From NCBI GenBank assembly GCA_919902675.1, contig CAKKRH010000016.1, positions 8,789 through 72,788 of the forward strand: 64,000 nt of DNA, written 5' to 3'. Origin of the DNA: Omnitrophica bacterium GWA2_41_15. GTDB taxonomy: Bacteria > Omnitrophota > Gorgyraeia > Gygaellales > UBA12090. This document shows, piece after piece, positions 2 to 43,800 of the stretch. A model generated the notes under the pieces. That model searched no databases and was not told the DNA's origin. It was given only the letters and a program-made list of their open reading frames with translations. The stretch's first letter is position 1, and each line of letters starts with the position of its first letter. The position numbers and the translations under genes were made by a program.

Positions 2-1744
2 AAGAAGGCGTTTATCAGCCTGGCCCTGGATATCATTGAGGCCCTGTATATCCCCAAGATAGACTCCCGTTATATAAACAAGCATATCCGGATAGAAAAC
101 CTTAAATTTTTGGATGAGGCCTTAAAAAAAGGAAAAGGAGCGATTCTCCTGGCCTATCATTTAGGCAACTGGGAGTTGTCTAATATCACCTGCAGCCTGG
201 AGGGATATGACTATAAGGTTATTGTCAATGAGCAAAGGTATCCGCTTTTAAATGAACTTTTAAACCGCTACCGCCAATCTAAAGGCTGTAAAATCATTCC
301 CCGGGGAATGGCCCTAAGAGAAATCATCAAGGCCTTAAAAAGTAATCAGGTAGTGGCGATGGCAGGAGACCAGGGCGGCAAGGAAGGTTATTTAAGCGAG
401 ATGTTTGGCCTGCCTATTTCCACGCCTAGTGGTTTTCTCAGGTTCGCCTTAAATACTCACTCGGCAATAATCCCGGCTATTATTGTCAGAGAACGCAGGT
501 TTTATCACCGGATTATCCTGGAGGCCCCGCTTGAGATACAGGGAAAAGATTCCCGGGAGGCCTTAGAAAATTGCCTGCGTAAGTCAAACGCGATCTTAGA
601 GCGCTATATCCGCGAGTATCCCCAGGAATATTTCTGGTTTTATAAAATATGGAAATACTCACCTTTTAAAAATGTGATAGTTTTATCCGACGGCAAGGCC
701 GGGCATCTGAGGCAGATGGAGGCTTTAGAGAGAATAGTTGGTGGCTTAGGACTTACGGTTTATAGCAAGATTATAGAAATAAGGTTTAAAAACAGGTTGG
801 CAAAAATACTGGCTAATGTTTGCGCCGGGTTTGGTTTGGATATTTTTGAGCTCTGTGTCCGTGAAGAATCTTATCTGGCCTTAAGGAGAGCGAGCGCGGA
901 CCTGGTTATTTCCTGCGGCGCGTCTTTGGCCGGGCTTAATTTGGCGATAGCTAGGGATAATTTGGCTCGTTCTGTATGCGTTATGAATCCGGGAATCGCG
1001 GGAAGAAGGAGATTTGATTTAGTGATTATGCCTAAGCACGACGGCTCGCGGCAGCGGAAAAATATCGTGATTACTGATGGCGCACTTAATTTGATCGATC
1101 AGGATTATTTAGACCGGCAAACTCAAGGCCTCCTTGAAGCGATTATTCCGGATAAGGCTTTGAATAACTCTATGGCTCTGGCTATAGGAAGCCGCACCAT
1201 CGCCCGCGGGCTTATCGGCGTATTAATCGGCGGGGATACCAAAAAATATAAATTAACCCAAAGATTAATCGCGATGGTTTCCTCCCAGATAAAAAAAGCG
1301 GCCTCGGATTTAGGAATGGACATACTGCTTACCACTTCTCGCAGGACGCCTCGGAAAGCTGAGGAGACGATTAAAAAGGAATTTGGCGGCTTAAAAGAAT
1401 GCCCGCTCCTGGTGATTGCCAATGAAAGAAATATCCCGCAGGCAGTAGGAGGGATTCTGGGGTTATGCGAATGTGTGGTTGTCTCCGGCGAGAGTATTTC
1501 AATGGTCTCGGAGGCGGCGGCTTCCGGTAAGTATGTCCTGGTTTTCAGGCTTAAAGGCACTTATTTAGGCAAAGAGGGCCGTCATGAGAGATTTTTAAGG
1601 AATTTGGAGAGTGAGGGTTATGTTCGGATAATCCAACCTGAGAATATCGCGGATAAAATTAAAGAGCTTATCCGGGATAGGCCGCCGATAAAGAAATTGG
1701 ATGACCGGGCCAAGGTTAAAGAAGCGATGAAAAAACTGCTATGA
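2..1744 (+). CDS. Lipid A late acyltransferase (LpxL/HtrB family) fused to a C-terminal ELM1/DUF1022-like domain; 5' end cut by window edge
   Basis: The frame is open from nt 2, with no stop upstream of the ATG at 110, so the gene begins outside the window. The N-part carries the acyltransferase blocks GAILLAYHLGNWE and VVAMAGDQ. The C-part, from VIVLSDGKAGHLRQ, carries the ELM1-family blocks GGDTKKY and LLTTSRRTP. Confidence 0.7.
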   Translation, partial: KKAFISLALDIIEALYIPKIDSRYINKHIRIENLKFLDEALKKGKGAILLAYHLGNWELSNITCSLEGYDYKVIVNEQRYPLLNELLNRYRQSKGCKIIPRGMALREIIKALKSNQVVAMAGDQGGKEGYLSEMFGLPISTPSGFLRFALNTHSAIIPAIIVRERRFYHRIILEAPLEIQGKDSREALENCLRKSNAILERYIREYPQEYFWFYKIWKYSPFKNVIVLSDGKAGHLRQMEALERIVGGLGLTVYSKIIEIRFKNRLAKILANVCAGFGLDIFELCVREESYLALRRASADLVISCGASLAGLNLAIARDNLARSVCVMNPGIAGRRRFDLVIMPKHDGSRQRKNIVITDGALNLIDQDYLDRQTQGLLEAIIPDKALNNSMALAIGSRTIARGLIGVLIGGDTKKYKLTQRLIAMVSSQIKKAASDLGMDILLTTSRRTPRKAEETIKKEFGGLKECPLLVIANERNIPQAVGGILGLCECVVVSGESISMVSEAAASGKYVLVFRLKGTYLGKEGRHERFLRNLESEGYVRIIQPENIADKIKELIRDRPPIKKLDDRAKVKEAMKKLL

Positions 1745-1749
1745 TAAAC

Positions 1750-1805
1750 TATCAGCTATCAGCAATCAGCAATCAGCTGAAAGCCGAAAGCTGAAAGCCG
1801 AAAGC
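1750..1805 (+). repeat. Heptamer-phased intercistronic hairpin: 4x (T/A)ATCAGC then 4x YGAAAGC
   Basis: It reads tatcagc tatcagc aatcagc aatcagc | tgaaagc cgaaagc tgaaagc cgaaagc. It fills the whole gap between the stop (1742-1747) and ATG 1808. Confidence 0.85.
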
Positions 1806-1807
1806 TG

Positions 1808-3895
1808 ATGAACATTCTGCAAATAGTACCTGAACTTAATTACGGCGGGGTGGAGACCGGGACGGTGGATTTGGCTAAGTATTTAATCAATGCCCGGCAT
1901 AAGGCGGTAGTGGTTTCCGCCGGCGGAGAGTTGGTAGACAGGCTTAAGGCCTTAGGCGCTGTTCATTATTCGCTGGCGGTTAATAAAAAATCCCTATTTT
2001 CAATTGTCCGGGCTTGTTCAGAGCTGGTAAAGATCATCCGAAAAGAAGATATCCAGGTAGTCCATGCCCGTTCCCGGGTTCCAGCCTGGAGCGCTTATTT
2101 TGCCGCCAAATTAACTAATGTTCCTTTTGTTACCACTTGTCACGGTTATTATTCCCGGCATATTTTAAGCCGGGTGATGGGCTGGGGAAAATTGGTAATT
2201 GTGCCCAGCCAGATAATCGGAAGGCGCATGATTGACGATTTCGCGGTATCCGCAGAGAGGATAAGGTTGATACCGCGCGGTGTGGATGCCGAAAATTTTA
2301 CCTTTATTTTGCCTGAGGAAAAAAGCCGTACTGAGTTTGTGATCGCCATTATCGCCAGGATTACTCCGATAAAAGGGCATCTTTGTTTTATCAAAGCAAT
2401 CCAGCGGGTCTACCGTAGTATTCCTAATATTAAGGTCTGGATTATCGGCACAGCCCCCAAATCCAAGTCTCATTATAAAGAGGACCTGGAGATTCTAGTC
2501 AAGCGTTTGGGATTGGCGCATATTGTAGAATTTTTAGGCAAGAGAAACGACATTTCTCAGCTTTTTTCTAAAATCAATCTTTTGGTTATGGCCTCAACTA
2601 CCCACGAGGCCTTTGGTCGGGTGATTGTCGAGGCTCAAGTATCCGGGGTTCCGGTAGTGGCTACACGGGTAGGTGGAGTGGTGGATATTATTGAGCCCGG
2701 CGTGGATGGGCTCCTCTGTGTTCCTAAAGATTCTGAAGGTATGGCTGAGGCAATTATCAGGATTTTGAGGGATAATGAACTAAGCTCTCTATTAGCCAAA
2801 AACGGCCGGCTTAAGGCGCTTTCAAAATTTAACTTGGAGAAAATGGCTAAAGACACCCTGGAGGTTTATCAGGAGGCAGTTGGTTTTAAAAGAATTCTGA
2901 TAATAAAACTGAGCGCTTTGGGTGATCTTATACTCTCGATTCCGGCCTTAAAGGCGCTACGCAAGAAATATCCTCCTTCTCATCAGATAACCCTGCTCAC
3001 CGGCCAGGCGATAGCCGCGGTAGTAAGTAATTGTCCTTATTTGGATGAGGTAATGGTGTATGATTTTAAAGAGAACGATAAGGGCATCTTTAAGCTTTTT
3101 CGCCTGGGTAAGGAATTAAGAAGAAAGAATTTTGATATGGTTGTTGACCTGCAGAATAACCGCAAGAGCCATATCCTTTGCGCTCTTTCTTTGGCTTCGC
3201 TAAGATGCGGATATCAAAACAAGAAGTTTAGCTTTTTGCTTAATCGTAAGGTCATAGAAGATAAATTTATCCTGGGGCCGCTGGAACATCAGTTCCGGAT
3301 TTTAAATCTGCTGGATATTGAACTCAAGGACAGAAAGATTGAACTTTGGCCTTCAAAAGATGATGAGAGATATATCGATGATTTTTTAAATTCAGAATGG
3401 TTAAGCGGGAGTCAGATTTTGGTGGGGGTTCACCTTAGTTCTTCCCAGAAGTGGCTTACCAAGCGCTGGCCGCTGGAATATATCGCTCATCTGGCCGAAG
3501 AGCTGGCTTTAAGGGATATTCGCGTGGTTATAACCGGAGAAAGAATGCCCCGAGAAGAATTGAGAGTTTTTAACGAGTTGACCAAGAAGTCCAGGCCGAT
3601 TATGGCCTGCGGAAAAACCACCATAAACCAGCTTGCCTGCCTGATTAAACGCTGTAATGTATTTATTTCAGGTGATACCGCGCCGTTACATATTGCCTCC
3701 GGCGTAGGCACGCCGGTAATCGCGCTATTCGGCCCGACTGACCCCCGCCGGCATATCTCCTCGGAAAAAGACGCGTTGATTTTAAAAAAGGAGTTAGAGT
3801 GCCAGCCCTGCTATAAGCCAAAATGCGTATCCATAGAGTGTATGAAGAAGATAAGCGTGGATGAGGTTAAAGAGGCGGTGTTAAAACTGTTATAA
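1808..3895 (+). CDS. Two-domain glycosyltransferase: N-terminal GT4 (WaaG-like) fused to C-terminal GT9 (heptosyltransferase-like)
   Basis: 695-aa ORF. The N-half has the GT4 E-x7-E block EAFGRVIVEAQVSGVPVVATRVGG. The C-half has ILIIKLSALGDLILSIPALKALR and ISGDTAPLHIASGVGTPVIALFGPT, the same signature seen in the GT9 ORFs at 5899 and 6911. Confidence 0.8.
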   Translation: MNILQIVPELNYGGVETGTVDLAKYLINARHKAVVVSAGGELVDRLKALGAVHYSLAVNKKSLFSIVRACSELVKIIRKEDIQVVHARSRVPAWSAYFAAKLTNVPFVTTCHGYYSRHILSRVMGWGKLVIVPSQIIGRRMIDDFAVSAERIRLIPRGVDAENFTFILPEEKSRTEFVIAIIARITPIKGHLCFIKAIQRVYRSIPNIKVWIIGTAPKSKSHYKEDLEILVKRLGLAHIVEFLGKRNDISQLFSKINLLVMASTTHEAFGRVIVEAQVSGVPVVATRVGGVVDIIEPGVDGLLCVPKDSEGMAEAIIRILRDNELSSLLAKNGRLKALSKFNLEKMAKDTLEVYQEAVGFKRILIIKLSALGDLILSIPALKALRKKYPPSHQITLLTGQAIAAVVSNCPYLDEVMVYDFKENDKGIFKLFRLGKELRRKNFDMVVDLQNNRKSHILCALSLASLRCGYQNKKFSFLLNRKVIEDKFILGPLEHQFRILNLLDIELKDRKIELWPSKDDERYIDDFLNSEWLSGSQILVGVHLSSSQKWLTKRWPLEYIAHLAEELALRDIRVVITGERMPREELRVFNELTKKSRPIMACGKTTINQLACLIKRCNVFISGDTAPLHIASGVGTPVIALFGPTDPRRHISSEKDALILKKELECQPCYKPKCVSIECMKKISVDEVKEAVLKLL

Positions 3896-3900
3896 TAAGC

Positions 3901-3949
3901 TATCAGCTTTCAGCTGTCAGCAGTCAGCCGAAAGCCGAAAGCCGAAAGC
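3901..3949 (+). repeat. Heptamer-phased intercistronic hairpin: 4x NNTCAGC then 3x CGAAAGC
   Basis: tatcagc tttcagc tgtcagc agtcagc | cgaaagc x3. It is preceded by TAATAAGC and followed by cg + ATG 3952. Confidence 0.85.
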
Positions 3950-3951
3950 CG

Positions 3952-5046
3952 ATGAACATTTTAATTCTGGCTAATCATTTCAATCCCGGAGGAATATCCA
4001 GCTATATCTTGAATTTGGCTCAAGGATTAACTGTCAGAGGGCATAAGGTATATATCGGCTCCGCGGGCGGTGAGTGGGTGGAAAGGCTTACGAAAAATAA
4101 TATAGAACATATCAATCTGCCTTTAAAGACCAAATCCATAATCAGCCCGAAGCTTTTGTTTTCTTATTTTATCCTGAAGAAAGCCCTGAAGGATAAACGC
4201 GTCGACATAATCCACAGCCAGACCCGGGTTACCAGCGTATTGGCTTATTGGTTATCCGCGAAGACCGCCATACCTTTTGTTTCTACCGCCCACGGTTTTT
4301 TCAAGCCGCGCTGGGAGAGATTGAGGTTTCCTTGCTGGGGGGATTTGGTTATTGCCATCTCCCATGCGGTTAAAGAGCATTTAATCCGGGATTTTAAAGT
4401 TGCCCCGGATAAAATAAGATTGGTGCGTAACGGAATAAAGGTCGCCAGTCTCCAGTCGCCAGTCTCCAGAAGAAAAGAGATAAAAGAAGAATTCGGCTTG
4501 AAAGATGGGCCGGTGGTGGGGATTATCGCCCGGCTTTCTGAGGTCAAAGGGCATAAATACCTGATCCAGGCTATGAGTGAGGTTGCCGCGGAAATCCCAG
4601 AGGTTCAGCTTTTGAGTGTGGGTGACGGCGCGATAAAAAAAGAATTAGAGGATCTCGCGCTCTCTCTGGGTATTTTAGAGCGCGCGCGTTTTATTCCGGC
4701 GGTCGCCGACACCCGGGAGGCGCTTTCGGTAATGGATGTTTTTGTGATGCCCTCTTTGCAGGAAGGATTAGGTTTGTCCATAATGGAGGCGATGCTTTCC
4801 GGCCTGGCGGTAGCTGCTTCCTCGGTCGGAGGCATACCCTCTTTGATCAAAGACGGGCAAACCGGGATCCTGGTTAGGCCTAAAGACGCCTCCGCCTTAG
4901 CTAAGGCGATAATCAGCCTGTTAAAGGATAATAAAAAGGCATTCGAACTAGGCGAAAATGCCCGGGAATTGATTGTAAAAGAATTTTCTTTAGAGAGAAT
5001 GATTCATGAAACAGAAGAGGTTTACAGACTATGCCTAAGGCGATAA
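3952..5046 (+). CDS. Glycosyltransferase family 4
   Basis: 364 aa. It starts MNILILANHFNPGGISSY and has the E-x7-E block EGLGLSIMEAMLSGLAVAASSVGG. Confidence 0.8.
   Translation: MNILILANHFNPGGISSYILNLAQGLTVRGHKVYIGSAGGEWVERLTKNNIEHINLPLKTKSIISPKLLFSYFILKKALKDKRVDIIHSQTRVTSVLAYWLSAKTAIPFVSTAHGFFKPRWERLRFPCWGDLVIAISHAVKEHLIRDFKVAPDKIRLVRNGIKVASLQSPVSRRKEIKEEFGLKDGPVVGIIARLSEVKGHKYLIQAMSEVAAEIPEVQLLSVGDGAIKKELEDLALSLGILERARFIPAVADTREALSVMDVFVMPSLQEGLGLSIMEAMLSGLAVAASSVGGIPSLIKDGQTGILVRPKDASALAKAIISLLKDNKKAFELGENARELIVKEFSLERMIHETEEVYRLCLRR
4441..4468 (+). repeat. In-CDS tandem 14-mer x2 (= 4 heptamers gtcgcca gtctcca)
   Basis: gtcgccagtctcca gtcgccagtctcca inside the GT4 gene, encoding VASLQSPVS. 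Confidence 0.85.
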
Positions 5047-5834
5047 AATTCGGGTTACTATTTCTGCTTTTTTCTTTTTTCAGCTTTTTAATCTGGATAG
5101 GCACACTGCTTAAGCATTATACCGTGCCTATCTTGATGTATCACTATGTCAATAACGAAGAACCGTTAAAAAGCAGGCTGGGCGTGAGTCCGGAGAGCTT
5201 TGAAAGGCAGATGCGTTTCTTAAGAGAACGTAAATACAATATTGTTTCCCTGGAGGAGTTAACCGATCTGATAAAGAATAAGAAAAAGATACCTCCTATG
5301 ACCGTGGCCGTTACCTTTGACGACGGCTATCTGGATAATTATACTCACGCCTACCCGGTGCTAAAGAAATATAATATCCCGGCGGCTATTTTCGTGGTGA
5401 TTAACCGGATAGGTAAGCATTTAGTAAATGATGATTATATGTCCTGGAGCCAGATTAGAGAGATCTCTGAAAGCGGCCTGATTACTATCGGAAGCCATAG
5501 TATGAGTCATCCTAACTTAAGCGAGATTAGTTTGGAAGAACAGCTGAAAGAGGAAATCCTTGAGTCAAAAAAAATATTGGAAAAGGAATTGAATCAAGAG
5601 GTTAAATTCTTCAGTTATCCTTTTGGCGGCCGGAGCCCTGAGGCATGCCGGATTGTATCTTTATCCGGCTATAAGGCAGCCGTGGGAACCAATTTTCCTA
5701 AAGGCTCTCCTGGCGACGACATCTATGCCTTAAAAAGACTGCGTATTTCGGAAAACTGCCGGAACCTGTTTATTTTCTGGGTGGAAGTATCCGGCTTTTA
5801 TACACATATCAAAGAGCAGAGGGATGACTACTAA
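5031..5834 (+). CDS. Polysaccharide deacetylase (CE4 / NodB homology domain), N-terminal TM anchor
   Basis: NodB motifs VAVTFDDGY and IGSHSMSHPNL, plus a hydrophobic N-terminus. It overlaps the preceding gene by 16 nt. Confidence 0.8.
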   Translation: MPKAIKFGLLFLLFSFFSFLIWIGTLLKHYTVPILMYHYVNNEEPLKSRLGVSPESFERQMRFLRERKYNIVSLEELTDLIKNKKKIPPMTVAVTFDDGYLDNYTHAYPVLKKYNIPAAIFVVINRIGKHLVNDDYMSWSQIREISESGLITIGSHSMSHPNLSEISLEEQLKEEILESKKILEKELNQEVKFFSYPFGGRSPEACRIVSLSGYKAAVGTNFPKGSPGDDIYALKRLRISENCRNLFIFWVEVSGFYTHIKEQRDDY

Positions 5835-5840
5835 ATAAGC

Positions 5841-5896
5841 TTTCAGCTCTCAGCTTTTAGCAATCAGCCGAAAGCCGAAAGCCGAAAGCCGAAAGC
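5841..5896 (+). repeat. Heptamer-phased intercistronic hairpin: 4x NNT(C/T)AGC then 4x CGAAAGC
   Basis: tttcagc tctcagc ttttagc aatcagc | cgaaagc x4. It is preceded by TAAATAAGC and followed by aa + ATG 5899. Confidence 0.85.
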
Positions 5897-5898
5897 AA

Positions 5899-6957
5899 AT
5901 GAATATTCTTATCGTCGAAGTGAACTGGCTGGGGGATGTGTTGTTTTCTACTCCGGCTATTAAGGTGCTAAGGAAGCAATTTCCGGATAGCCGTATCAGT
6001 TGTCTGATTGTCCCCAGAGTGAAAGAGGTATTAGAGAATAATCCTTATATTGATGAGCTTATTATCAATGATGAAGAGGGCCTGCATAAGGGATTTTTTG
6101 GCCGGTTGAAATTAGTTAAGGCCTTAAAAAGTAAGAATTTTGATTTGGCGGTTTTTTTTCATCGTTCTTTCTCCCGGGCATTAATTGCTTATCTGGCCGG
6201 GATTCCCAGGAGGCTGGGCTATGCTACCTGGAAAAGAAGATTCCTCTTAACCGAAGCCATACCAATGCCTAAAAAAGACAGCCTGCACCGGGTGGACCAT
6301 TATCTAAACATAGTTAAACCATTGGGATGCGCTGTGGATGATAGGCAATATGAATTTTTCTTGAGCCAAGAAGACGAAAGGTTCGCCGAAGATTTCTGGA
6401 ATAAGGAAGGCTTAAAAAAGGACGACTGGACGGTTTGTTTAAATCCGGGAGGCAACTGGGGCCCTAAGCGCTGGCCAAAAGAGAATTTTGCCTCACTCGC
6501 CGACAGGCTTATCCGCGAGTATCAAGCCAAAATAATTTTTAGCGGCTCAAAAGATGATATTTTGCTGATAAAAGAGATAACCCGGATGATGGAGCAAAAA
6601 GAATTCAGCGTATCCGCCGGATATACCAATCTTAAAGCTGCCGGGGCTATTTTTAAAAAGGCGAATCTGACGATTTCCGGGGATTCTGGGCCTTTACATA
6701 TCGCCGCCAGTGTCGGGGCGACTGTCCTGGCCTTATTCGGCCCGACCTCGCCCGCAATCACCGGGCCGATCGGCTCAGGCAGAATCGCGCTTATGCATAA
6801 GCCGCTGGAGTGCCGGGTTCCTTGTTATGACGCGGCCTGTAATGATAACCGCTGTATGCGGGAAATTAAAGTTGAAGATGTATTGGCAGAGGTGAAGAAG
6901 CTAGAGGAGGATGCTCATAGAAATGAAGTTTACGCGGCGGAAAAAAAATTACTTTAG
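5899..6957 (+). CDS. Glycosyltransferase family 9 (LPS heptosyltransferase-like)
   Basis: ILIVEVNWLGDVLFSTPAIKVLRK at the N-terminus, and ISGDSGPLHIAASVGATVLALFGPT. Confidence 0.8.
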   Translation: MNILIVEVNWLGDVLFSTPAIKVLRKQFPDSRISCLIVPRVKEVLENNPYIDELIINDEEGLHKGFFGRLKLVKALKSKNFDLAVFFHRSFSRALIAYLAGIPRRLGYATWKRRFLLTEAIPMPKKDSLHRVDHYLNIVKPLGCAVDDRQYEFFLSQEDERFAEDFWNKEGLKKDDWTVCLNPGGNWGPKRWPKENFASLADRLIREYQAKIIFSGSKDDILLIKEITRMMEQKEFSVSAGYTNLKAAGAIFKKANLTISGDSGPLHIAASVGATVLALFGPTSPAITGPIGSGRIALMHKPLECRVPCYDAACNDNRCMREIKVEDVLAEVKKLEEDAHRNEVYAAEKKLL

Positions 6958-7984
6958 CCGGATTTTGGTGGTGCGCACGGATAGAATCGGGGATGTGGTC
7001 TTAACCACCCCGGTCTTAAAAGCCTTAAGGGAAAATTATCCCGCGAGCCATATTGCTATGATGGTTAATCCCCAGACCAAAGAACTGCTTGAGGGCAATC
7101 CTTATCTTAACGAGGTAATTGTGTATGATAAGGATAAAAAAGATAAAGGGATGCTGGGCTTCTGGAGATTTGTCTTGGAATTAAAAAGAAAAAGATTTGA
7201 TTTAGCTATAGTGCTGCATACTAAAAACCGCCTTAATCTGATTACCTATCTTGCCGATATCAAGCGCCGGGCCGGCTACAAAAATAATAAATTCGGCTTT
7301 TTGCTCACGGATAAACTGATGGATATCCGACCTCTGGGCCTAAAACACGAGGTTGATTATTGTCTGGATATTCTAAGAAAGCTTGGCCTGAAAATAAGCG
7401 ATAAGATTCCTTATTTGGCAGTTAAAAATGAAGATATGGATTCAGTGGGTAATATTCTTGAGGCTCTGGGCGTAAACCGCGATACCAGGATTGCCGCTAT
7501 TCATCCCGGCTCAAGCTGTATTTCCAAGCGTTGGCCAAGAGAGAGATTTGTGGTTTTGGCTAACCGGCTGGTCGAGGATTATGGCCTGAAGGTTATTCTG
7601 ATTGCTTCAGGTGAAGAGAATGAGGCTATTGCTGATGAGATAGCCAGGCAGATAAGATATCCGGTTCTGAATCTATCCGGAAAATTGTCTCTGGGCCAAG
7701 TATCCGCGCTTTTAAAACGTTGTGTTATTTTTATCTCTAATGACTCTGGCCCGGTGCATATTGCCAGCGCCGTGGGCACGCCGGTAGTCTCTATCTTTGG
7801 CCGTAACCAGGCTGGTTTAAGCCCGGCGCGCTGGGCCCCGGTAGGGAGAAAAGACGCGTATCTGCATAAAGAGGTGGGTTGCTCGATATGCCTGGCGCAT
7901 AATTGTAATATCGGTTTTGACTGTTTGAAGGCCATAACCGTGGATGATCTGTTAAAGGCAGTTGACGATATCCTCAAACCGTGA
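6911..7984 (+). CDS. Glycosyltransferase family 9 (LPS heptosyltransferase-like)
   Basis: ILVVRTDRIGDVVLTTPVLKALRE and ISNDSGPVHIASAVGTPVVSIFG. The start is ambiguous: ATG 6911 lies 1 nt after AGGAGG, and ATG 6923 (MKFTRRKK) is equally plausible. Confidence 0.8.
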   Translation: MLIEMKFTRRKKNYFSRILVVRTDRIGDVVLTTPVLKALRENYPASHIAMMVNPQTKELLEGNPYLNEVIVYDKDKKDKGMLGFWRFVLELKRKRFDLAIVLHTKNRLNLITYLADIKRRAGYKNNKFGFLLTDKLMDIRPLGLKHEVDYCLDILRKLGLKISDKIPYLAVKNEDMDSVGNILEALGVNRDTRIAAIHPGSSCISKRWPRERFVVLANRLVEDYGLKVILIASGEENEAIADEIARQIRYPVLNLSGKLSLGQVSALLKRCVIFISNDSGPVHIASAVGTPVVSIFGRNQAGLSPARWAPVGRKDAYLHKEVGCSICLAHNCNIGFDCLKAITVDDLLKAVDDILKP

Positions 7985-8128: not shown

Positions 8129-8189
8129 GATAGGCGGGACATTCTTGTCCCGCTCTCGACGAGGCGGGGTTAGAAAACCCCGCCTATCC
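8129..8189 (+). repeat. GC-rich double-hairpin repeat, copy 1
   Basis: gataggcgggacattcttgtcccgc…ggcggggttagaaaaccccgcctatcc. The stems are gcgggac/gtcccgc and ggcggggt/accccgcc. A near-identical copy lies at 35282. Confidence 0.85.
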
Positions 8190-10307: not shown

Positions 10308-10425
10308 ACCAGAAATCCTAATCCCTAAACAAACCCAAAATCTAAAACATAAAAGTCAAAACTTTTGTTTGGCGCATTTGGATTTTCGTTTTTGAGTTTG
10401 TTTAGAGTTTAGTGTTTAGAGTTTT
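10303..10425 (+). repeat. CTAAACAAA-core long imperfect hairpin element (copy A, after hldA)
   Basis: The left arm is A/C-rich heptamers (taaacca gaaatcc taatccc taaacaa acccaaa…). The right arm is T/G-rich (…gagtttgtttagagtttagtgtttagag). Confidence 0.75.
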
Positions 10426-10452
10426 TCCATAGTAAGTTTGCATGGAGGACAG

Positions 10453-11999: not shown

Positions 12000-12955
12000 T
12001 TCTTAAGCGGGCTAAAGAGGTTTTTAAAATAGAAGCTGAAGCGATAGCCAGCCTCTCTTCCAAGTTAGATGATAATTTCGTCCAGGCGGTAGAGGCGATT
12101 TATAATTGCCGGGGCCGGGTGGTGGTGAGCGGAATGGGTAAAACCGGAATCATCGGCCAGAAGATATCCGCGACCCTCTCTTCCTTGGGGACTCCCAGCA
12201 TTTGGCTGCATTCCGCGGAGGCCACGCACGGAGACTTGGGAAAGGTAACCAAGGATGATGTGGTGATTGTCCTTTCTAATAGCGGTGAAACCGAAGAGAC
12301 TAAAAATTTACTGCCCATACTAAAGAAGATCGGAGCCAGGATTATTGCCATTACCGGAAATAAAAATTCTACCTTAGCCAAATATTCGGATATAGTCCTG
12401 GATGTCTCGGTTAAAAAAGAGGCCTGCACCTTAGGGCTGGCCCCTACCTCATCCACCACCGCCGCCCTGGCCATGGGAGATGCCCTGGCCGTATGTTTGG
12501 TGGAGAAAAAAGGTTTTAAGGAAAAGGATTTTGCCTTATATCATCCCGGGGGGTTATTAGGAAAGAGGCTGCTTCTGAAAGTTGAGGATATTATGCGTAA
12601 AGGAAAAGCCAACCCTATTGTCAAGGAGGAGACCCTGGTCAAGGATGTGCTTTACGCTATTACCGGTTCCCGGGCCGGAGCGGCCTCGGTTGTAGATAAG
12701 TCGGGAAGGCTAAGCGGTATTTTTACCGACGGAGACCTGAGAAGGCATTTAGAGCGCAGCGCGGATTTAGCTTCGCGAAAAGTAAAAGAGGTTATGACTA
12801 AGAATCCTGTTACTATCCACCCGCGGCAATTAGCGGCCGAGGCCTTAAGGATCCTGGAAGAAAAAAAGATTGATGAACTTCCGGTGGTGGATGCGGCGCT
12901 TAAGCCGGTGGGTATGTTGGATATCCAGGATATCTTGCGGGCGGGGCTTGTATAG
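11996..12955 (+). CDS. kdsD: Arabinose-5-phosphate isomerase (SIS domain + tandem CBS)
   Basis: SIS block VVVSGMGKTGIIGQKISATLSSLGTPS and LSNSGETEE, with a C-terminal CBS pair. There is a 4-nt ATGA overlap with kdsA. Confidence 0.85.
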   Translation: MILKRAKEVFKIEAEAIASLSSKLDDNFVQAVEAIYNCRGRVVVSGMGKTGIIGQKISATLSSLGTPSIWLHSAEATHGDLGKVTKDDVVIVLSNSGETEETKNLLPILKKIGARIIAITGNKNSTLAKYSDIVLDVSVKKEACTLGLAPTSSTTAALAMGDALAVCLVEKKGFKEKDFALYHPGGLLGKRLLLKVEDIMRKGKANPIVKEETLVKDVLYAITGSRAGAASVVDKSGRLSGIFTDGDLRRHLERSADLASRKVKEVMTKNPVTIHPRQLAAEALRILEEKKIDELPVVDAALKPVGMLDIQDILRAGLV

Positions 12956-12987
12956 TCCATAGTCGATAGTTGATGGTCCATAGATTA
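12953..12987 (+). repeat. Direct array of 5 heptamers spanning the kdsD stop and the kdsC start region
   Basis: tagtcca tagtcga tagttga tggtcca tagatta. The first TAG is the kdsD stop codon. Confidence 0.8.
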
Positions 12988-13515: not shown

Positions 13516-13530
13516 AGCCGGCAAGCCAAA

Positions 13531-13669
13531 GCCATAAGCCAGAGGGCGATGGTTTGCGTTCCATATAAGCAAAGCCATAAGCCAGAGGGCGATGGTTTGC
13601 ATTCCATATAAGCAAAGCCATAAGCCAGAGGGCGATGGTTTGCATTCCATATAAGCAAAGCCATAAGCC
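13531..13669 (+). repeat. Tandem repeat, 43-bp unit x3.2, each unit self-complementary
   Basis: Units start at 13531, 13574, 13617 and 13660 (partial). The unit is gccataagccagagggcgatggtttgc(g/a)ttccatataagcaaa. The internal dyad is gcaaagccat…atggtttgc. Confidence 0.9.
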
Positions 13670-13722: not shown

Positions 13723-14658
13723 ATGAATAAGACCGTTTTAGCGCTTGTTTTTTTATTTAGTTTGAGTTTTACTCTGGACGCGGCCCAGAAAGGCGCGCCT
13801 AAGAAAAACCAGACGCAATCCGAAAGCTCCGACCAAAGGATAGATGATTTCTCTCTTTCCGGAGGCAACCAGAGGGGAAAGAAGGCCTGGGAGGTTAAGG
13901 GAAAGTCCGCGGATATCTTTACCGATGTGGTCAAGCTTACCAGCGTAAACGCCAATGTTTACGGCGAGGAAGAGGATGTGAACTTGGTCGCGGATAACGG
14001 CGCCTACGATAAGGCCAGCGGCAAGATGCACCTGGAGGATAATGTGGTAATTACTACCACCGGCGGCGGGAAGATGACTACCGACTATTTGGATTGGGAT
14101 AAGGAGTCGCAAAGGGTGAGTACCGAGGCCATGGTGAATATTGAAAAGCAGAATATTAAGGCAACGGCCAAGGGTTTGGAGGGTGAGCCTAATTTAAAAA
14201 GGATTTCTTTAAAAGATAATGTTAAGGTTGAAATCAGGGAGCAGGCCGAGGCGCTCATCGCGCCGCTCCCGCCTCTCGCTCCTCAGGCGGCTTCGGCGGG
14301 TGAATCCAAAATTCCCGATCCTCTTTTTTCCGCCAAGGAACCGACGATTATTACCTGCTCCGGGCCCTTAGAAATAGATTATGAAAAAGAAATAGCGATT
14401 TTCCATAATAATGTTATGGTGGACCAAAAAGACCAAGGGATTATGTATGCCGACAGGATGGACGCCTATTTTGATTTTAAGAACAAAAAGATTTTACGGA
14501 TAATTTCTAAAGGCAACGTCAAAATTGTCAAGGATGAAAATACCTCTTACAGTGATGAGGCGCTGTATTCCGCCCAAGACGGTAAATTAACCTTAAGCGG
14601 AAATCCGCGCTTAGTTATTAATTCCAAGGATAAAATACTCAACGCGCCGTCAGAGTAG
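13723..14658 (+). CDS. LptC-like plus LptA/OstA-like two-domain LPS transport protein with N-terminal signal/anchor
   Basis: MNKTVLALVFLFSLSFTLDAA is a signal or anchor. Two OstA-type beta-jellyroll-like halves (…GKMHLEDNVVITTTGGGKMTTDYLDWD… and …AIFHNNVMVDQKDQGIMYADRMDAYFD…GNVKIV…LSGNPRLV) are joined by a Pro/Ala linker (APLPPLAPQAASA). Its position between kdsC and lptB matches the E. coli lptC-lptA slot. Confidence 0.55.
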   Translation: MNKTVLALVFLFSLSFTLDAAQKGAPKKNQTQSESSDQRIDDFSLSGGNQRGKKAWEVKGKSADIFTDVVKLTSVNANVYGEEEDVNLVADNGAYDKASGKMHLEDNVVITTTGGGKMTTDYLDWDKESQRVSTEAMVNIEKQNIKATAKGLEGEPNLKRISLKDNVKVEIREQAEALIAPLPPLAPQAASAGESKIPDPLFSAKEPTIITCSGPLEIDYEKEIAIFHNNVMVDQKDQGIMYADRMDAYFDFKNKKILRIISKGNVKIVKDENTSYSDEALYSAQDGKLTLSGNPRLVINSKDKILNAPSE

Positions 14659-14855
14659 TTTTTATAGGTTAAGGGCGCGTTGAAGGGGGCGCGGGGGAGA
14701 TCGTCCCCCACGCTTAGGGGGGCGCTGCTTAGCGAACGTAGTGAGCGCGATGAGGGGGGCTTGCCCCACATAGCGCCTGCCTGCTAAAGCAGGCAGGGAA
14801 GCGCGGAGTTAACTTTCGCTTTTCCCAAATAAGAATTAAGTTAACGGAGCACTTG

Positions 14856-15578
14856 ATGCATCTTTTGGAAACTAAAGGTTTAGAAAAATCTTACGGGGGC
14901 AGGAAGGTTGTCTGCGGGGTGGACATCCTGGTCAAAAGGGGCGAGGTGGTCGGGCTCCTGGGGCCCAACGGCGCGGGTAAGACCACTACCTTTTATATGG
15001 TAGTGGGCATAGTCAAGCCGGATAAGGGCAATGTGGTTTTTGACAATGAAGAGATAACCGCTCTTCCTATTCATGAACGCAGCCGTTTAGGCATAGGTTA
15101 CCTGGCCCAGGAAAGGTCGGTTTTCAGGAAGCTCACCGTAGCGGAGAATATTATGGCCATACTGGAAACCCTGCCTTTAAGCCCGGGCCAGCGCAAGAGG
15201 CGGCTGGAGGAATTATTAGCCGAACTAAACATAGCTCATTTGGCCAAGTCTAAGGCCTATACCTTATCCGGAGGGGAGACTCGGCGCCTGGAGATTACCC
15301 GGGCCCTGGTTACCCGGCCGTCGTTTATCCTTCTGGATGAACCTTTTTCCGGAATTGATCCTATAGTTGTTTCCGAGGCCCAGGCTATAATCCGGGAGCT
15401 TAAGGTTAAAGGTTTAGGGGTATTGGTTACTGACCATAATGTCCGGGAGACCCTGTCTATTACCGATCGGGCTTATTTAATCTCTGACGGAAAGATTTTG
15501 ATTTCCGGCACAGCCGATGACCTGATTAACAATCCCCAGGTCCGTTCTATTTATCTGGGTGAGAAATTTAGGATGTGA
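14856..15578 (+). CDS. lptB: LPS export ABC transporter ATP-binding protein
   Basis: Walker A GPNGAGKTTTF, signature LSGGETRRLEI, Walker B FILLDEPFSGIDP. ATG 14856 lies 7 nt after GGAG. Confidence 0.85.
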   Translation: MHLLETKGLEKSYGGRKVVCGVDILVKRGEVVGLLGPNGAGKTTTFYMVVGIVKPDKGNVVFDNEEITALPIHERSRLGIGYLAQERSVFRKLTVAENIMAILETLPLSPGQRKRRLEELLAELNIAHLAKSKAYTLSGGETRRLEITRALVTRPSFILLDEPFSGIDPIVVSEAQAIIRELKVKGLGVLVTDHNVRETLSITDRAYLISDGKILISGTADDLINNPQVRSIYLGEKFRM

Positions 15579-16563: not shown

Positions 16564-16570
16564 GTGAAGC

Positions 16571-16708
16571 TAAACCCTAAATCCGAAACCCTAAACTCTA
16601 AACAAACTAAAAATCATAAACTCGAAACTCAAAATAAATGTTTAAGATTTGGAGAATTTGGATTTGGGTAGGATTTGTTTAGGATTTAGAAGTTAGTGCT
16701 TAGGGTTT
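16571..16708 (+). repeat. CTAAACAAA-core long hairpin element (copy B, after tig)
   Basis: The outer 9 bp are perfect (aaaccctaa / ttagggttt). The core ctaaacaaa pairs with tttgtttag. The left arm has 3 G in ~70 nt and the right arm has 1 C. Confidence 0.8.
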
Positions 16709-16748
16709 ACCGTGCTATTAACAAAAACTTATAAGTAACGGAGGTAAA

Positions 16749-17357: not shown

Positions 17358-17358
17358 T

Positions 17359-17451
17359 TTTAGTTTATAGAGTTTATTGAGTTTATAGAGTCTATTGAGT
17401 TAAGCTCAAAATAACTCAACTCAACAAACTCAAGCAACTCAATTAACTATA
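17359..17451 (+). repeat. Low-complexity hairpin built from ~9-mers, arms in inverted polarity (T/G arm first)
   Basis: Left arm agtttatag agtttattg agtttatag agtctattg. Right arm ctcaacaaa ctcaagcaa ctcaattaa. Located after clpP. Confidence 0.6.
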
Positions 17452-17470
17452 AGATGAGAGAGGATTTATT

Positions 17471-20245: not shown

Positions 20246-20249
20246 GAGA

Positions 20250-29550: not shown

Positions 29551-29997
29551 ATGATGTTAGAAGAGAAGATATTGGAAGATTTTAAGAAGGCGATGAAAGA
29601 CAAGGACGCGCCAAGGGTTTCCACCTTAAGTTTCTTGAGGTCAGAATTGAAGAATATCGCTATTGAGAAGAGGGCGGAAAAACTTGAGGATGTTGATGTC
29701 CTGACGGCCATAAAAAAACAGATAAAACAGCGCCAGGATTCTATCGAGCAGTTTAGGGCCGGCTCCAGGGCGGATCTTGTGGAGAAAGAAAGCAAAGAAC
29801 TGGAGATTCTAAGATCCTATTTGCCTGAGCAGCTGTCTGAAGGTAAGATAAAAGAGATAATTGACCAGGTGGTAACCTCGATTGGCGCCAAGACCGCCCA
29901 GGATATGGGAAAGGTGATGAAAGAATTACTGCCTAAGCTTTCAGGAAGAGCGGATAATAAATTAGTCAGTGAACTGGTAAAGCAAAGATTACATTAA
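29551..29997 (+). CDS. GatB/YqeY domain protein
   Basis: 148 aa with the typical YqeY layout (…DFKKAMKDKD…LSFLRSELKN…IKKQIKQRQDSIEQF…). Confidence 0.75.
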   Translation: MMLEEKILEDFKKAMKDKDAPRVSTLSFLRSELKNIAIEKRAEKLEDVDVLTAIKKQIKQRQDSIEQFRAGSRADLVEKESKELEILRSYLPEQLSEGKIKEIIDQVVTSIGAKTAQDMGKVMKELLPKLSGRADNKLVSELVKQRLH

Positions 29998-30003
29998 ATA
30001 AGC

Positions 30004-30059
30004 CTTCAGCTGTCAGCCTTCAGCTTTCAGCTGAGAGCTGATAACTGAAAGCCGACAGC
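30004..30059 (+). repeat. Heptamer-phased intercistronic hairpin (diverged copy)
   Basis: cttcagc tgtcagc cttcagc tttcagc | tgagagc tgataac tgaaagc cgacagc. It is preceded by TAAATAAGC and followed by tgataa + ATG 30066. Confidence 0.8.
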
Positions 30060-30065
30060 TGATAA

Positions 30066-30365
30066 ATGTCTACTATACGTAAATTGGTTGAGGAGTCGCA
30101 TAAAATCGCCCGGGAAAAAGGCTGGTGGCAGAACGAAAGGAATGATGCCGAGTTGATCGCTCTTATGCATTCGGAGCTTTCCGAGGCCCTGGAGGCGATG
30201 CGCAATCACGCCAGGACCGAAGAAGTTGCCGAGGAACTGGCAGACTGCTGTATCCGGATATTTGATTATTGCGGGGCCCGCGGCATAGACCTGCAGGGCG
30301 CGATTAAAAAGAAGATAGCCAAAAACCGCGCCCGGCCCTATCGCCACGGGAATAAGAAGTTTTAA
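30066..30365 (+). CDS. Small MazG-like nucleotide pyrophosphohydrolase
   Basis: 99 aa, with LMHSELSEALEA and EELADCCIRIFDY (E-x2-E…E-x2-D metal motif). Confidence 0.6.
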   Translation: MSTIRKLVEESHKIAREKGWWQNERNDAELIALMHSELSEALEAMRNHARTEEVAEELADCCIRIFDYCGARGIDLQGAIKKKIAKNRARPYRHGNKKF

Positions 30366-40809: not shown

Positions 40810-43800
40810 ATGAAGAGACGACAAGATTTGGAAAAATACGGTTTGTATGATTCCCGTTTTGAGCATGATTCCTGCGGGGTGGGGTTTGTCTGCGATGTTA
40901 AGGGGAGAAAATCCAATTCCATCGTTCGCCAGGGACTAAAGGTGCTTAAGCGGCTTTCTCATCGCGGGGCAACCGGGGCGGATCCCAAGACCGGGGACGG
41001 GGCTGGAATTTTGATCCAAACCCCGCATCAATTCTTCCTCAAGATTGCCCATCAGGCCAGGATCCGGCTTCCTGACTATGGGGAATACGGCTCTGGGCTG
41101 GTTTTTCTGCCGGCTAATCCTAAGGAACGCAAGTTTTGTAAGGATGCCTTAGCTAAGATCATTAAGGATGAGGGGCAGTTTTTGCTTGGCTTTAGGGCCG
41201 TGCCGGTGGATAATTCGGATATCGGGGTGAGCGCTCAAAAGACCCAGCCGGTGATTGAGCAGGTGTTCATAAGAAGGGTCGCCAAGCCGCCAAGTCGCCA
41301 AGTCGCCAAGCAAGACGATTTAGATTTTGAGCGCAGGCTTTATGTTATCCGCAAACAGGCCGAAAATATCATCCGCGCCTCTAAATTAAAACAAAAATCC
41401 TCTTTTTATATCCCCAATCTTTCCAGCCGCACCTTTTCCTATAAAGGGCTGTTGATGCCAGAGCAGGTGGATAGTTTCTTCCCGGACCTGCTGGATGAGG
41501 ATGTTCAGAGCGCGATCTGTCTGGTTCATTCCCGCTATTCCACCAATACCTTTCCCACCTGGGACCTGGCCCAGCCTTTTCGCTTCCTGGCCCATAACGG
41601 CGAGATAAACACCTTGCGGGGGAATATCAGCTGGATGTCTGCCCGGGAAGGCCTCTTAAAAAGCGGGCTCTTCGGCAAAGACATAAATAAGCTCAAGCCG
41701 GTGATTGTCCCGGGGGGCAGTGACTCCGCGGCTATTGATAACGCCTTTGAGCTTTTGGTATTGGCCGGCAGGCCCATTGAGCAGGCGATGATGATGCTTA
41801 TTCCGGGTGCCTGGGAACAGCATAAATTAATGGATGAAAAGCTCAAGGATTTTTATAAATACCACGCCTGTTTTATGGAGCCCTGGGACGGCCCGGCGGC
41901 TATTGCCTTTAGCGACGGGATAAGTATCGGGGCAGTCCTGGACAGAAACGGCCTGCGCCCGGCGCGCTATATTGTAACTAAAGATGATCTGGCGGTGATG
42001 GCCTCGGAGGTGGGGGTGCTGGATGAGATTAAGCCTTCAGACATCGCGCTCTCCGGCAGGCTTGAGCCGGGGAAGATGTTTTTTATTGATACCCTTCGGC
42101 AGAGGATCATCCAGGATGATGAGATTAAGGAAAAGGCCGCCAGCCGAAAGCCTTACGGTGACTGGCTTAAAGATAACCTTCTGGAGTTTGATAAGCTCCC
42201 CGCCGCAAGGCTGAAAGCTGAAAGCAGAAAGCTGAAAGCTGGTGAAGATGTTTTGCTTCTCCTAAATGCCTTTGGCTACACCCGTGAAGACTTGAAGCTC
42301 ATCCTAAAACCTATGGCTGAAGAGGGCAAAGAGCCTATCGGCTCAATGGGCAATGATGTGCCTCACGCGGTGCTCTCCAGGTATCCCCAGATGCTTTATA
42401 CATATTTCAAACAGCTCTTTGCCCAGGTAACCAACCCGGCCATTGACCCTATAAGGGAAGAATTGGTGATGAGCCTGTTTAGCTTTGTGGGCGCTCAGAA
42501 AAATATCCTGGAGGAAACCCCCGGACACGCGCGTAAGCTTTTAGTCAAAGAACCCATCCTTAGTAACGAGGATTTGGCCGGGATCCGAGGCCTCAACCCC
42601 GCCCTTTCTTACTATGAAGATACGCCTGGAAGAGGAAAGGGCGGGGTCAAGGAAAAAGGCTTTAAGAGTAAAGGCGTTTCCATACTTTTTAATGTTGAGG
42701 ACGAAAAGGATTTTCTTAAAACCTTGAATAAGGTCTGTCAGGAGGCAGTCGCGGCTATCCGGCAGGGATACAGTTTTATTATCCTAAGCGATCAGGGGGT
42801 AAATAAAAAGCGCGCGGCCTTGCCGGCCCTTTTGGCTGTGGGGGCAGTGCATCATTACTTAGTCAAAAAGGCCCTGCGCACCCAGATTGGGATCATTCTG
42901 GAAACTGCTGAACCACGGGAGGTGCATCATTTTGCCTTGTTGTTTGGCTATGGAGCGGATTGCGTTAATCCTTACCTGGCCTATCAGTCTCTGGCCTATT
43001 TAATCTCCGAGGGGCAGTTGAATTTGGATTATGCCAAGGCCTTGAATAATTACCGCCACGCCCTGGATACCGGGATACTCAAGATACTTTCCAAGATGGG
43101 TATTTCTACACTTCAGAGTTATCGCGGGGCCCAGATATTCGAGGCCTTGGGGGTGGGGCTTGAGGTTATTGATAAATGCTTTTGCGGGACTGTTTCGCGC
43201 GTTGGGGGCGCGGGTTTTAGCGAGATTTGCGCTGAGTCTTTGCTAAGGCATAAACAGGCCTTTGGCGAAGGGTCTCTCAATGCCCCTTACCTGTTAAGCG
43301 GAGGCGTTTACCAGTGGAAACGCGACGGTGAATACCACCTTTGGAATCCGGATACTATTGCCAGTCTCCAGGATGCCACCCGTCTTGGCGATTACAAGAA
43401 ATACAGGGAATTCGCCAATCTTATTAATGACCAGTCTAAAAATCCGGCGACCTTGAGAAGCCTGCTCAAATTCAAGTCTGTCAGGCCTATTCCGATTGAG
43501 AAGGTGGAGACGGCAGAAAATATCTTTAAGCGCCTGGCTACCGGGGCAATGAGCTTTGGTTCAATTTCAAGAGGGGCGCATGAGAACCTGGCCATCGCCA
43601 TGAACCGCTTAGGCGGCCGTTCCAATACCGGAGAAGGCGGGGAGGATCCTGCCCGGTTTAAGCCGCTTGCTAACGGAGATTCCAAAAGAAGCGCTATTAA
43701 GCAGGTAGCCTCCGGCCGTTTCGGGGTAACTACCAATTATTTGGTCAATGCCGATGAAATCCAGATTAAGATTGCTCAGGGGGCTAAGCCCGGTGAAGGG

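Follow-up and report, generated by a model that had tools for sequence, protein, structure and literature searches.

Heptanucleotide-repeat hairpins between stop and start codons in an Omnitrophota genome and at gene junctions of other phyla

What kind of sequence fills the space between a stop codon and the next start codon almost to the base, four times over in one genome fragment? The question is raised by a 64-kb stretch of DNA from Omnitrophica bacterium GWA2_41_15 (contig CAKKRH010000016.1, positions 8,789 to 72,788), which is the sequence analysed here and is called the window below. The proteins nearest to those of the window belong to metagenome-assembled genomes of Candidatus Omnitrophota. 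A previous inspection of the letters, made without database searches (the sequence-only reading), had pointed to four intercistronic gaps at 1750-1805, 3901-3949, 5841-5896 and 30004-30059 as being occupied by one and the same construction, and we found all four at these places. The four elements are copies of a hypervariable heptamer palindrome with a left arm (NNTCAGC)n and a right arm (YGANAGC)n, and they belong to a wider class of heptamer hairpins in the gaps of this Omnitrophota lineage and of many uncultured bacteria. With moderate confidence, we regard them as slippage-prone, dispersed heptanucleotide palindromes that appear to land between translationally coupled genes, where folding back could preserve the coupling, and not as a conserved regulator of lipopolysaccharide (LPS) genes.

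Layout and folding of the four elements

In the element pattern, a short tag follows the stop codon; the left arm has four NNTCAGC units and the right arm three to five of YGANAGC, and the ATG comes after a further 2-6 nt. All four gaps read in this way, as the sequence-only reading had described, with right-arm units of the form YGANAGC, and all four elements lie on the + strand. Copy 1 (1745..1807) fills the gap between a lipid A acyltransferase/ELM1-like gene and a GT4-GT9 fusion gene. Its TGA stop (1742-1744) is followed by the tag TAAAC, a left arm at 1750-1777 (TATCAGC twice, AATCAGC twice), a right arm of four alternating TGAAAGC and CGAAAGC units at 1778-1805, the dinucleotide TG and the ATG at 1808. 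Copy 2 (3896..3951) connects the GT4-GT9 gene to a GT4 gene, with a TAA stop at 3893-3895, the tag TAAGC, four left units at 3901-3928, CGAAAGC three times at 3929-3949, CG and the ATG at 3952. Copy 3 (5835..5898), between a polysaccharide deacetylase gene and a GT9 heptosyltransferase gene, is composed of a TAA stop (5832-5834), the tag ATAAGC, four left units (5841-5868), CGAAAGC four times (5869-5896), AA and the ATG at 5899. Copy 4 (29998..30065) occupies the gap from yqeY to a mazG-like gene and has a diverged right arm: after the TAA stop (29995-29997), the tag ATAAGC and four left units (30004-30031), the right arm at 30032-30059 reads TGAGAGC, TGATAAC, TGAAAGC and CGACAGC, followed by TGATAA and the ATG at 30066. 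Copies 1-3 reside in a + strand run of LPS-core genes (110..7984) coding for the lipid A acyltransferase/ELM1-like protein, the GT4-GT9 fusion, a GT4 protein, the polysaccharide deacetylase and two GT9 proteins, and copy 4 is flanked by the yqeY-like and mazG-like genes (29551..30365, + strand).

The elements are not random simple sequence, as had been proposed. In the window, TCAGCNNTCAGC has 12 matches against 0.05 expected and GAAAGCYGAAAGC has 10 against 0.02 expected, although units multiplied by slippage are not independent events. Tandem Repeats Finder describes every arm of the four copies as a period-7 array of 2.7-4.9 copies. The copies contain no unique core; the body is a pure 7-nt repeat of variable length with a loose AAGC tag in front. 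The short direct repeats flanking them (TGAT, ATAA, AAAT) are too short and too AT-rich to be judged as target-site duplications. The four downstream genes had also been said to lack a Shine-Dalgarno sequence. A match is indeed missing at all four (duplex energy -0.9 to -0.4 kcal/mol), but 13 of the 40 other scored genes are likewise without one (energy above -2.5), so that its absence is no peculiarity of the genes downstream of an element.

We folded each gap against dinucleotide-shuffled controls, the check that had been suggested together with the sequence-only reading. On the + strand all four gaps fold better than their shuffles, with energies of -20.4 to -32.4 kcal/mol and z-scores of -4.2 to -7.1. 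The opposite strand folds better still. The energies of the + and - strands are -24.7 and -36.6 kcal/mol for copy 1, -20.4 and -34.6 kcal/mol for copy 2, -23.3 and -36.8 kcal/mol for copy 3, and -32.4 and -43.6 kcal/mol for copy 4, so that the antisense strand (-34.6 to -43.6 kcal/mol) is more stable by 11-14 kcal/mol in each of the four. The periodic stem in which UCAGC pairs with GCUGA or GCCGA was therefore only partly as envisaged: a hairpin beyond shuffles is predicted, but most right-arm units are GCCGAAA, and UCAGC opposite GCCGA gives a central A.C mismatch on the mRNA and a G.U pair on the - strand. Because of this mismatch, the stems on the + strand are much weaker than those on the - strand.

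The same bias appeared when we aligned the left arm of each of 14 window hairpins to the reverse complement of its right arm. The differences comprise transitions, which give 45 A.C and 25 G.U on the sense strand, and 72 transversions; the CAGC family alone has 12 A.C against a single G.U. Purifying selection for an RNA stem on the mRNA would be expected to leave the reverse pattern, and the excess of A.C is thus no sign of selection for mRNA pairing. Among 15 folded gap regions of the window, the - strand is the better one in 11, and the sense strand is the weaker one at 30 of 41 oriented unique loci from the cross-phylum search described below, an asymmetry that is biased by the search pattern. 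The genes of the window are almost all on the + strand and the GC skew is about +0.13 throughout. At loci elsewhere where the mRNA strand and the lagging-strand template, as judged by local GC skew, are discordant, six follow gene direction and two follow the skew. The A.C excess fits selection for an mRNA stem that can be opened, and it fits equally well a selection that removes stable hairpins from the lagging-strand template, here identical in sequence to the mRNA. As for the 16S rRNA, GAAAG:CUUUC pairing amounts to about -4.3 kcal/mol with a 3′ tail of the B. subtilis type; pairing with the 16S 3′ tail of the host lineage is a conjecture.

Several simpler identities were considered and rejected. 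The elements are not intrinsic terminators, since no U-tract or terminator-like site occurs at any CAGC copy and the right arm runs directly into the ATG. They do not appear to carry a promoter, as promoter-like sites are not above shuffles on either strand. A translated mini-ORF (open reading frame) is excluded by the lack of ATG, GTG or TTG in frame with the downstream gene, and a read-through fusion by intervening stop codons in copy 1, the copy that was checked. At the gathering threshold, Rfam 15 has no match in the window; below it, the hits are generic hairpins (miRNA precursors, partial sok) with 18-29 bits against thresholds of 59-83.

Turnover in relatives and recurrence in other phyla

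To what extent are the elements conserved? The LPS region is covered by four relatives, with DNA identities of 95.8% (L041), about 90% (L026 and L027) and 85.8% (L028). At gap 1, the window has 4+4 units, L041 3+3 and L026 4+5, and in L028 the array is of another kind and has one arm (ATAGCAT/ATGGCAT). Where the window has the CAGC element of gap 2, a heptamer hairpin of ATAGTCN units is present in L041 and a 161-nt AACCAAA/TTTGGTT hairpin in L026. In L028 this gap does not exist: its upstream ORF extends 13 codons further and runs into the downstream start as ATGA. Copy 3 is absent from L026. The junction of copy 3 in that genome carries a 1.3-kb insert (14150-15490), in which small ORFs code for a Polbeta-type nucleotidyltransferase and a DUF559 fragment and motifs similar to GGGGAGGCGGGGAGGGG recur. 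An extra CAGC copy of L026 separates xerC from kdtA; in L028 this place is taken by an ATGGCAA/GCCATAA hairpin.

Copy 4 behaves similarly. It is missing in L083 (91% protein identity), the stop and start of which run together as TAATATG, and in L084 (80% protein identity) a CAGC element of 5+5 units exactly fills the next gap instead of the copy-4 gap. The closest relatives are represented by contigs of about 2 kb (L083, P0121/P0122); no element lies at the contig ends of L083, and thus there is no sign of a link between short contigs and the hairpins. At all compared junctions, the conserved flanks stop at the stop and start codons, and the gap alone is replaced. The elements are therefore not conserved; they have been gained, lost, replaced and resized in 7-nt steps over short evolutionary time. 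The empty junctions of the relatives (TAATATG, ATGA) suggest that the genes were already translationally coupled.

We also looked for the exact junction TCAGCNNTCAGCYGAAAGCYGAAAGC among species-representative genomes and metagenomes. It was found at 25 loci in the former and 54 in the latter, in total 79 hits, with about 0.02 chance matches estimated for the genome collection. The 79 hits collapse to 60 unique loci of 36-69% G+C from at least nine phyla, namely Acidobacteriota, Omnitrophota, Armatimonadota, Chloroflexota, Patescibacteria, Bacteroidota, Gemmatimonadota, Verrucomicrobiota and Desulfobacterota. The contigs L004 and L022 (CAZGQS01, titled uncultured Rhizobium sp.) have 41% G+C, a value far from that of Rhizobium, and are probably mis-binned. 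According to a heuristic ORF analysis, 20 of the 60 loci are bridges between the stop and start of co-directional ORFs, with several more identified by eye; in 11 of the 20, the stop lies at most 12 nt upstream and the start at most 8 nt downstream. Bridge contexts confirmed by Pfam are the junction of rpsH and rplF (S8-L6), a position 3 nt before rplD (L4) and one before rplO (L15), as well as positions before an exonuclease III-family gene (xth) and before an ABC ATPase gene.

Eight further loci lie in frame within long ORFs, where they always encode ..SAESRKPKAES..-like peptides. Alignment to solved structures in the PDB places a 15-residue insert of a valyl-tRNA synthetase (ValRS) between GWP and FYPTS, and a 16-residue insert of a serine hydroxymethyltransferase (SHMT) in a loop, both exactly at the element. 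The in-frame copies have GCCGAAA or similar wherever GCTGAAA would create an in-frame TGA. The number of units varies between samples at 7 of the 12 loci that were sampled more than once. The two arms often have unequal unit counts, such as 2+7 or 4+20; when the start codon abuts the element, the median difference is 1 unit compared with 2 units, these being small numbers.

The genomes of other phyla that contain CAGC elements (L003, L016, L037, L048, L065, L066, L068) also hold unrelated two-armed heptamer arrays, with unit pairs such as AGTGAGA/CTCACTT, AATGCGG/ACTCCGC and AGGGCTG/GCCCTCA, which makes paired heptamer arrays a general feature of those lineages. Short junctions account for a few percent of intergenic bases, as roughly estimated from gap lengths, yet they contain all four copies of the window and about one fifth of the non-ORF copies elsewhere. 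This implies either targeting or a strong survival filter on insertions. Viral contigs scanned for both arm orders gave no hits, and plasmids searched by BLAST gave no match. A linked mobilising or binding gene was rejected as well, because none recurs among 147 ORFs adjacent to elements and none is present in the window. No transposase family is recurrent among the 25 commonest Pfam families of these 147 ORFs, nor does a REP-associated tyrosine transposase (RAYT; Y1 transposase; REP, repetitive extragenic palindrome) occur among them or in the window, which encodes housekeeping functions only, without transposase, integrase or reverse transcriptase.

Other heptamer arrays of the window

The CAGC copies are one of several heptamer families in the window. 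Period 7 is the dominant period, with 29 of the 71 tandem-repeat rows, and period 14 occurs in addition. The 37 rows of period 7 or 14 concentrate in gaps of at least 30 nt, which hold 28 of them while representing 7.4% of the window. Heptamer arrays of several families are present in 13 of the 30 gaps of this size. Among them are six CTAAACC...GGTTTAG hairpins on the + strand (10308-10437, 16564-16748, 24720-24911, 30743-30870, 37831-37989 and 45430-45577), each of which begins directly after a stop codon and shares the invariant common core TAAACAAA...TTGTTTAG. The first of them, at 10308-10437, is missing in L026, which has a 24-nt gap there. Several of these hairpins have the Shine-Dalgarno sequence of the next gene downstream. 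The heptamer that forms their units is also that of plant telomeres (CCCTAAA/TTTAGGG). Inverted arrays of other heptamer or near-heptamer units are located at 12952-12983, 17358-17470, 20240-20345, 38390-38445 (+ strand) and 47380-47470.

A fifth member of the CAGC family in the window is a one-armed array of GCTGAAA (4.6 copies; 42210..42241, + strand), which lies in frame in gltB and encodes ..LKAESRKLKAG.. as part of the linker that joins the GATase_2 and Glu_syn_central domains. Its third unit is GCAGAAA, which removes the TGA otherwise in frame. Further heptamer arrays are found within coding regions: CGACTAT (4.6 copies) in kdtA of L041 (182-213), GTCGCCA/GTCTCCA (four copies) in the GT4 gene of the window (4441-4469), and TCTCTGT (4.9 copies; 21628-21661) inside the ORF at 21577-23388.

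Repeats of other kinds were observed in the intergenic regions. A 43-bp unit CAAAGCCATAAGCCAGAGGGCGATGGTTTGCATTCCATATAAG is repeated 3.3 times with 99% identity at 13527-13669, in the gap between a gene for a HAD hydrolase (KdsC-like) and an lptC/lptA-like gene. A G+C-rich hairpin pair GGCGGGACATTCTTGTCCCGC ... GGCGGGGTTAGAAAACCCCGCC occurs twice in long intergenic regions of the window, at 8133-8184 and 35284-35332, and a similar pair is found in a long gap of L084 (2993-3186). It appears to be a further dispersed repeat family. Different intergenic sites, namely 35135-35222 in the window, 6890-6958 in L028 and 1232-1314 in L083, are occupied by palindromes with the ends GTCATTGCGAG ... CTCGCAATGAC.

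Known repeats, rival explanations and meaning

To which known system do the elements belong? In many prokaryotes, long repeats most often have a unit of seven bases; such heptamers are mostly noncoding and have been proposed to arise by polymerase slippage (Mrazek et al., 2007, via PMC4679880). Taken in the broad sense of heptanucleotide simple-sequence repeats (long simple-sequence repeats, LSSR, or short tandemly repeated repetitive sequences, STRR), the elements have every defining property, with at least three head-to-tail 7-nt units, a mostly noncoding location and a variable unit number. The survey, as far as it is summarised in PMC4679880, contains no paired inverted arrays, stop-to-start placement or cross-phylum unit family. 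The STRR heptamers of cyanobacteria form a hairpin between the co-transcribed hupS and hupL genes of Nostoc/Anabaena, for which transcript stabilisation or translational coupling was proposed (PMC2670836). The present elements are similar to them in having tandem seven-base units in intergenic DNA and a potential hairpin between two genes (PMC2670836). They differ from strict STRR in their Candidatus Omnitrophota host and in their units NNTCAGC/YGAAAGC, which are not CCCCAGT, TTGGTCA or CAACAGT; they differ also in having two heptamer arms that abut and fill the stop-to-start gap, in their occurrence in at least nine phyla and in their in-frame copies within ORFs.

TAACTGA direct repeats are patchily distributed in marine Beggiatoaceae, cyanobacteria and Bacteroidetes and end one to a few nucleotides before start codons without a ribosome-binding site (MacGregor, 2015, PMC4679880). 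They lie inside operons, including ribosomal-protein operons, and a few are inside ORFs (PMC4679880). The present arrays likewise end shortly before a start codon, at 2-6 nt in the window and at no more than 8 nt at 11 unique loci elsewhere, and the rotation CTGATAA differs by one or two bases from CTGATAG/CTGAAAG of the present elements (5-6 of 7 identical). Unlike the TAACTGA repeats, which are direct repeats without predicted structure, the present arrays are always paired with an inverted arm and fold with z-scores of -4 to -7, and a turnover among close relatives is documented for them. In the 5′ untranslated region (5′-UTR) of Haemophilus influenzae hmw1A, (ATCTTTC)n is transcribed as part of a long imperfect hairpin, of which RNase III cuts one strand, thereby raising expression (PMC12721329). 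This cleavage sets both expression and repeat dynamics, the unit number varies, and the gene downstream codes for a surface structure (PMC12721329). Common to hmw1A and the present elements is a heptamer repeat of polymorphic unit number as an arm of a long imperfect hairpin (here a predicted one) upstream of a gene. The hmw1A hairpin, however, is located in a 5′-UTR downstream of a promoter and has a G-rich, non-repeat partner arm, whereas the present elements are intercistronic and consist of repeats in both arms.

Among the dispersed repeats, REP/REPIN, Correia, enterobacterial repetitive intergenic consensus (ERIC) and Rickettsia palindromic elements (RPEs) form hairpins and are co-transcribed, and some are cut by RNase III or RNase E (PMC10969869). 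In-frame insertion into housekeeping genes is described for RPEs, and Correia and ERIC elements undergo RNase processing (PMC10969869). The present elements resemble RPEs and miniature inverted-repeat transposable elements in being dispersed, polymorphic for presence and absence, and inserted in frame (ValRS, SHMT). Unlike miniature mobile repeats, they lack a unique core and change size by whole units, and neither terminal inverted repeats nor a target-site duplication can be made out clearly. REP/REPIN are imperfect palindromes of 20-40 nt with a conserved 5′ tetranucleotide, unlike the pure 7-nt repeat that makes up the body of the present elements. Integron attC sites are imperfect palindromes of 57-141 bp between an ORF stop and the next start and can impede downstream translation. 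The present elements share this placement and, like attC sites, fold better on the strand complementary to the mRNA. In contrast to attC, no R or L boxes (GTTRRRY) were seen on reading the four copies, the window has no integron integrase, and the flanks belong to a syntenic housekeeping operon rather than to cassettes. Ribbon-helix-helix repressors of the omega type read direct and inverted DNA heptads. The four direct and 3-5 inverted contiguous heptads of our elements are similar to their operators, in resemblance only, and unlike these operators, which lie in promoter regions and have a cognate repressor, the elements are intercistronic or intragenic without a recurrent neighbour gene. The elements thus combine features of all compared systems, agree with the strict definition of none, and are best filed as a variant of heptanucleotide-repeat hairpins. 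No description of the CAGC/GAAAGC unit family was found in the searchable literature, in which the repeat strings matched unrelated primers only.

How could such a palindrome be accommodated between two genes? Judging from the relatives that lack it, the element appears to land between abutting or overlapping genes that are already coupled, which would account for both the exact stop-to-start fill and the missing downstream Shine-Dalgarno sequence. Transcribed within the operon mRNA, the element would fold back on itself and bring the upstream stop and the downstream start together at the foot of one imperfect stem. A terminating ribosome would cover the first one or two units of the left arm and thereby free the matching right-arm units and the start codon; with the basal helices melted, termination-coupled re-initiation could survive an insertion of 56-68 nt. 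A self-complementary insert would be tolerated at a coupled junction, unlike an unstructured one, presumably because folding back keeps stop and start together. The A.C mismatches would hold the mRNA stem weak enough to be opened. Translation of the downstream gene may be affected by each of three things, namely changes in unit number, cleavage of one strand by an RNase III-type enzyme and the weak GAAAG:CUUUC pairing. From the sequences we infer co-transcription, coupling, processing by RNase and a tuning by unit number. A bolder and unlikely version of this account takes the TCAGC/GCTGA palindrome for a self-propagating, transposase-free element that crosses phyla, prefers stop-start junctions and sometimes in-frame surface loops of essential enzymes, and acts as a re-initiation module independent of a Shine-Dalgarno sequence, tunable by 7-nt slippage; in the manner of hairpin shunting, a ribosome terminating at the foot of the stem would resume at the start codon on its other side.

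Several points weigh against the reading that we favour. The empty-looking junctions could stem from precise deletion and would then not be the ancestral state. The presence of three heptamer families at a single junction of close relatives could point to a requirement for a hairpin, whose turnover would then be functional. No mobilising gene came to light, as the 147 ORFs adjacent to elements hit 197 Pfam families, none common to more than three, and target-site duplications are ambiguous at the flanks. The same TCAGC/GCTGA core across phyla and the kinship with TAACTGA hint at a sequence-specific factor, for which our account has no need. A function on the antisense strand or on DNA could be the cause of the better folding of that strand. 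Moreover, the search pattern biases which arm variants were recovered, and ORF calls at high-GC loci are heuristic.

The sequence-only reading had favoured a dedicated intercistronic RNA element. Its strongest form is a cis-regulatory RNA whose hairpin occludes the start, enforces coupling or RNase processing and sets the ratios of LPS-core glycosyltransferases. As the hairpin abuts stop and start and leaves no space for a Shine-Dalgarno sequence, it could reasonably lead to coupling, occlusion or RNase processing; it folds significantly better than shuffles and recurs at such junctions in other phyla. Four of the seven two-armed copies of the lineage (window, L026, L084), including the xerC-kdtA copy of L026, are in the LPS operon, and the hairpins of other heptamer families at the same junctions in relatives could represent functional turnover. 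Nevertheless, we consider this explanation improbable: the element is unconserved at 86-96% DNA identity, with no hairpin at gap 2 in L028 or at gap 4 in L083, A.C mismatches outnumber G.U pairs on the mRNA strand, arms are unequal, no Rfam family matches, and the element is found in unrelated operons and within ORFs of other phyla. The observation that three of the four copies lie in the LPS-core operon holds as to position, but no tie to that operon follows from it. Given the lack of conservation in relatives and the copies in ribosomal-protein operons and in frame in the ValRS, SHMT and GltB genes, the LPS clustering looks local, not functional. Unit number may still tune the expression of the LPS glycosyltransferases. 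If so, the elements could be contingency loci, in which 7-nt slippage would shift the arm balance, the sequestration of the start or an RNase III site and switch or grade surface-glycan genes as in hmw1A. The position upstream of LPS glycosyltransferase genes, the polymorphism of gap 1 among near-identical strains (4+4, 3+3, 4+5) and of 7 of 12 resampled loci, and the experimental precedent of a transcribed heptamer hairpin whose cleavage by RNase III sets expression (PMC12721329) speak for it. The same elements in ribosomal-protein operons and beside housekeeping genes, where phase variation is unexpected, and the many other heptamer families adjoining non-surface genes in the window make this explanation about equally improbable.

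Two other explanations shift the function from the stem to its sequence or to the other strand. A conserved factor might read the TCAGC/GCTGA core every 7 nt on RNA or DNA, as proposed for TAACTGA or as with omega-type repressors. One 5-mer core in strict 7-nt phase in at least nine phyla, the CTGA common to the units, TAACTGA and the Geobacter MTYCTGA repeats, the frequently unequal arms (full pairing being not required), and right arms ending 2-7 nt before start codons without a Shine-Dalgarno sequence, as TAACTGA repeats do, are in line with such a periodic binding array. It would need many factors for the several unrelated heptamer families at equivalent positions in one genome, no protein family is recurrent among the 147 neighbouring ORFs, and in-frame copies tolerated inside enzymes argue against an operator role, so that we find it very unlikely. 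Palindromes are deleted preferentially when a stable hairpin forms on the lagging-strand template. By analogy with this instability, with attC or with REP/RAYT, the structure that matters might be an antisense RNA hairpin or a hairpin of single-stranded DNA that acts in recombination or transposition or is filtered by replication. The advantage of 11-14 kcal/mol for the - strand in all four copies, its better folding in 11 of 15 gap regions and the weaker sense strand at 30 of 41 oriented loci agree with this, and with positive GC skew and co-oriented genes the weaker hairpin would be on the strand that presumably becomes exposed as template for lagging-strand synthesis. On the other side, neither strand has more promoter-like sites than its shuffles, the window contains neither integrase, RAYT nor transposase, attC core sites are absent, the cross-phylum asymmetry is subject to the bias of the search pattern, and the discordant loci divide 6 to 2 in the skew comparison; we hold this explanation to be just as doubtful as the binding array.

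A dispersed heptanucleotide palindrome between coupled genes, as we favour, links three scattered and not fully explained observations: the STRR hairpins, the TAACTGA repeats before starts and the hmw hairpin of H. influenzae. It provides a defined family with natural element-bearing and element-free junctions for studying initiation beside a hairpin without a Shine-Dalgarno sequence, and it raises the question how an identical 50-nt construction reached the ValRS and SHMT genes and the ribosomal-protein operons of unrelated phyla. If this reading is true, palindromes of seven-base repeats would continually remodel gene junctions in Omnitrophota, Acidobacteriota, Patescibacteria and other uncultured phyla, and operon expression, strain-level variation and metagenome assembly would all be affected.

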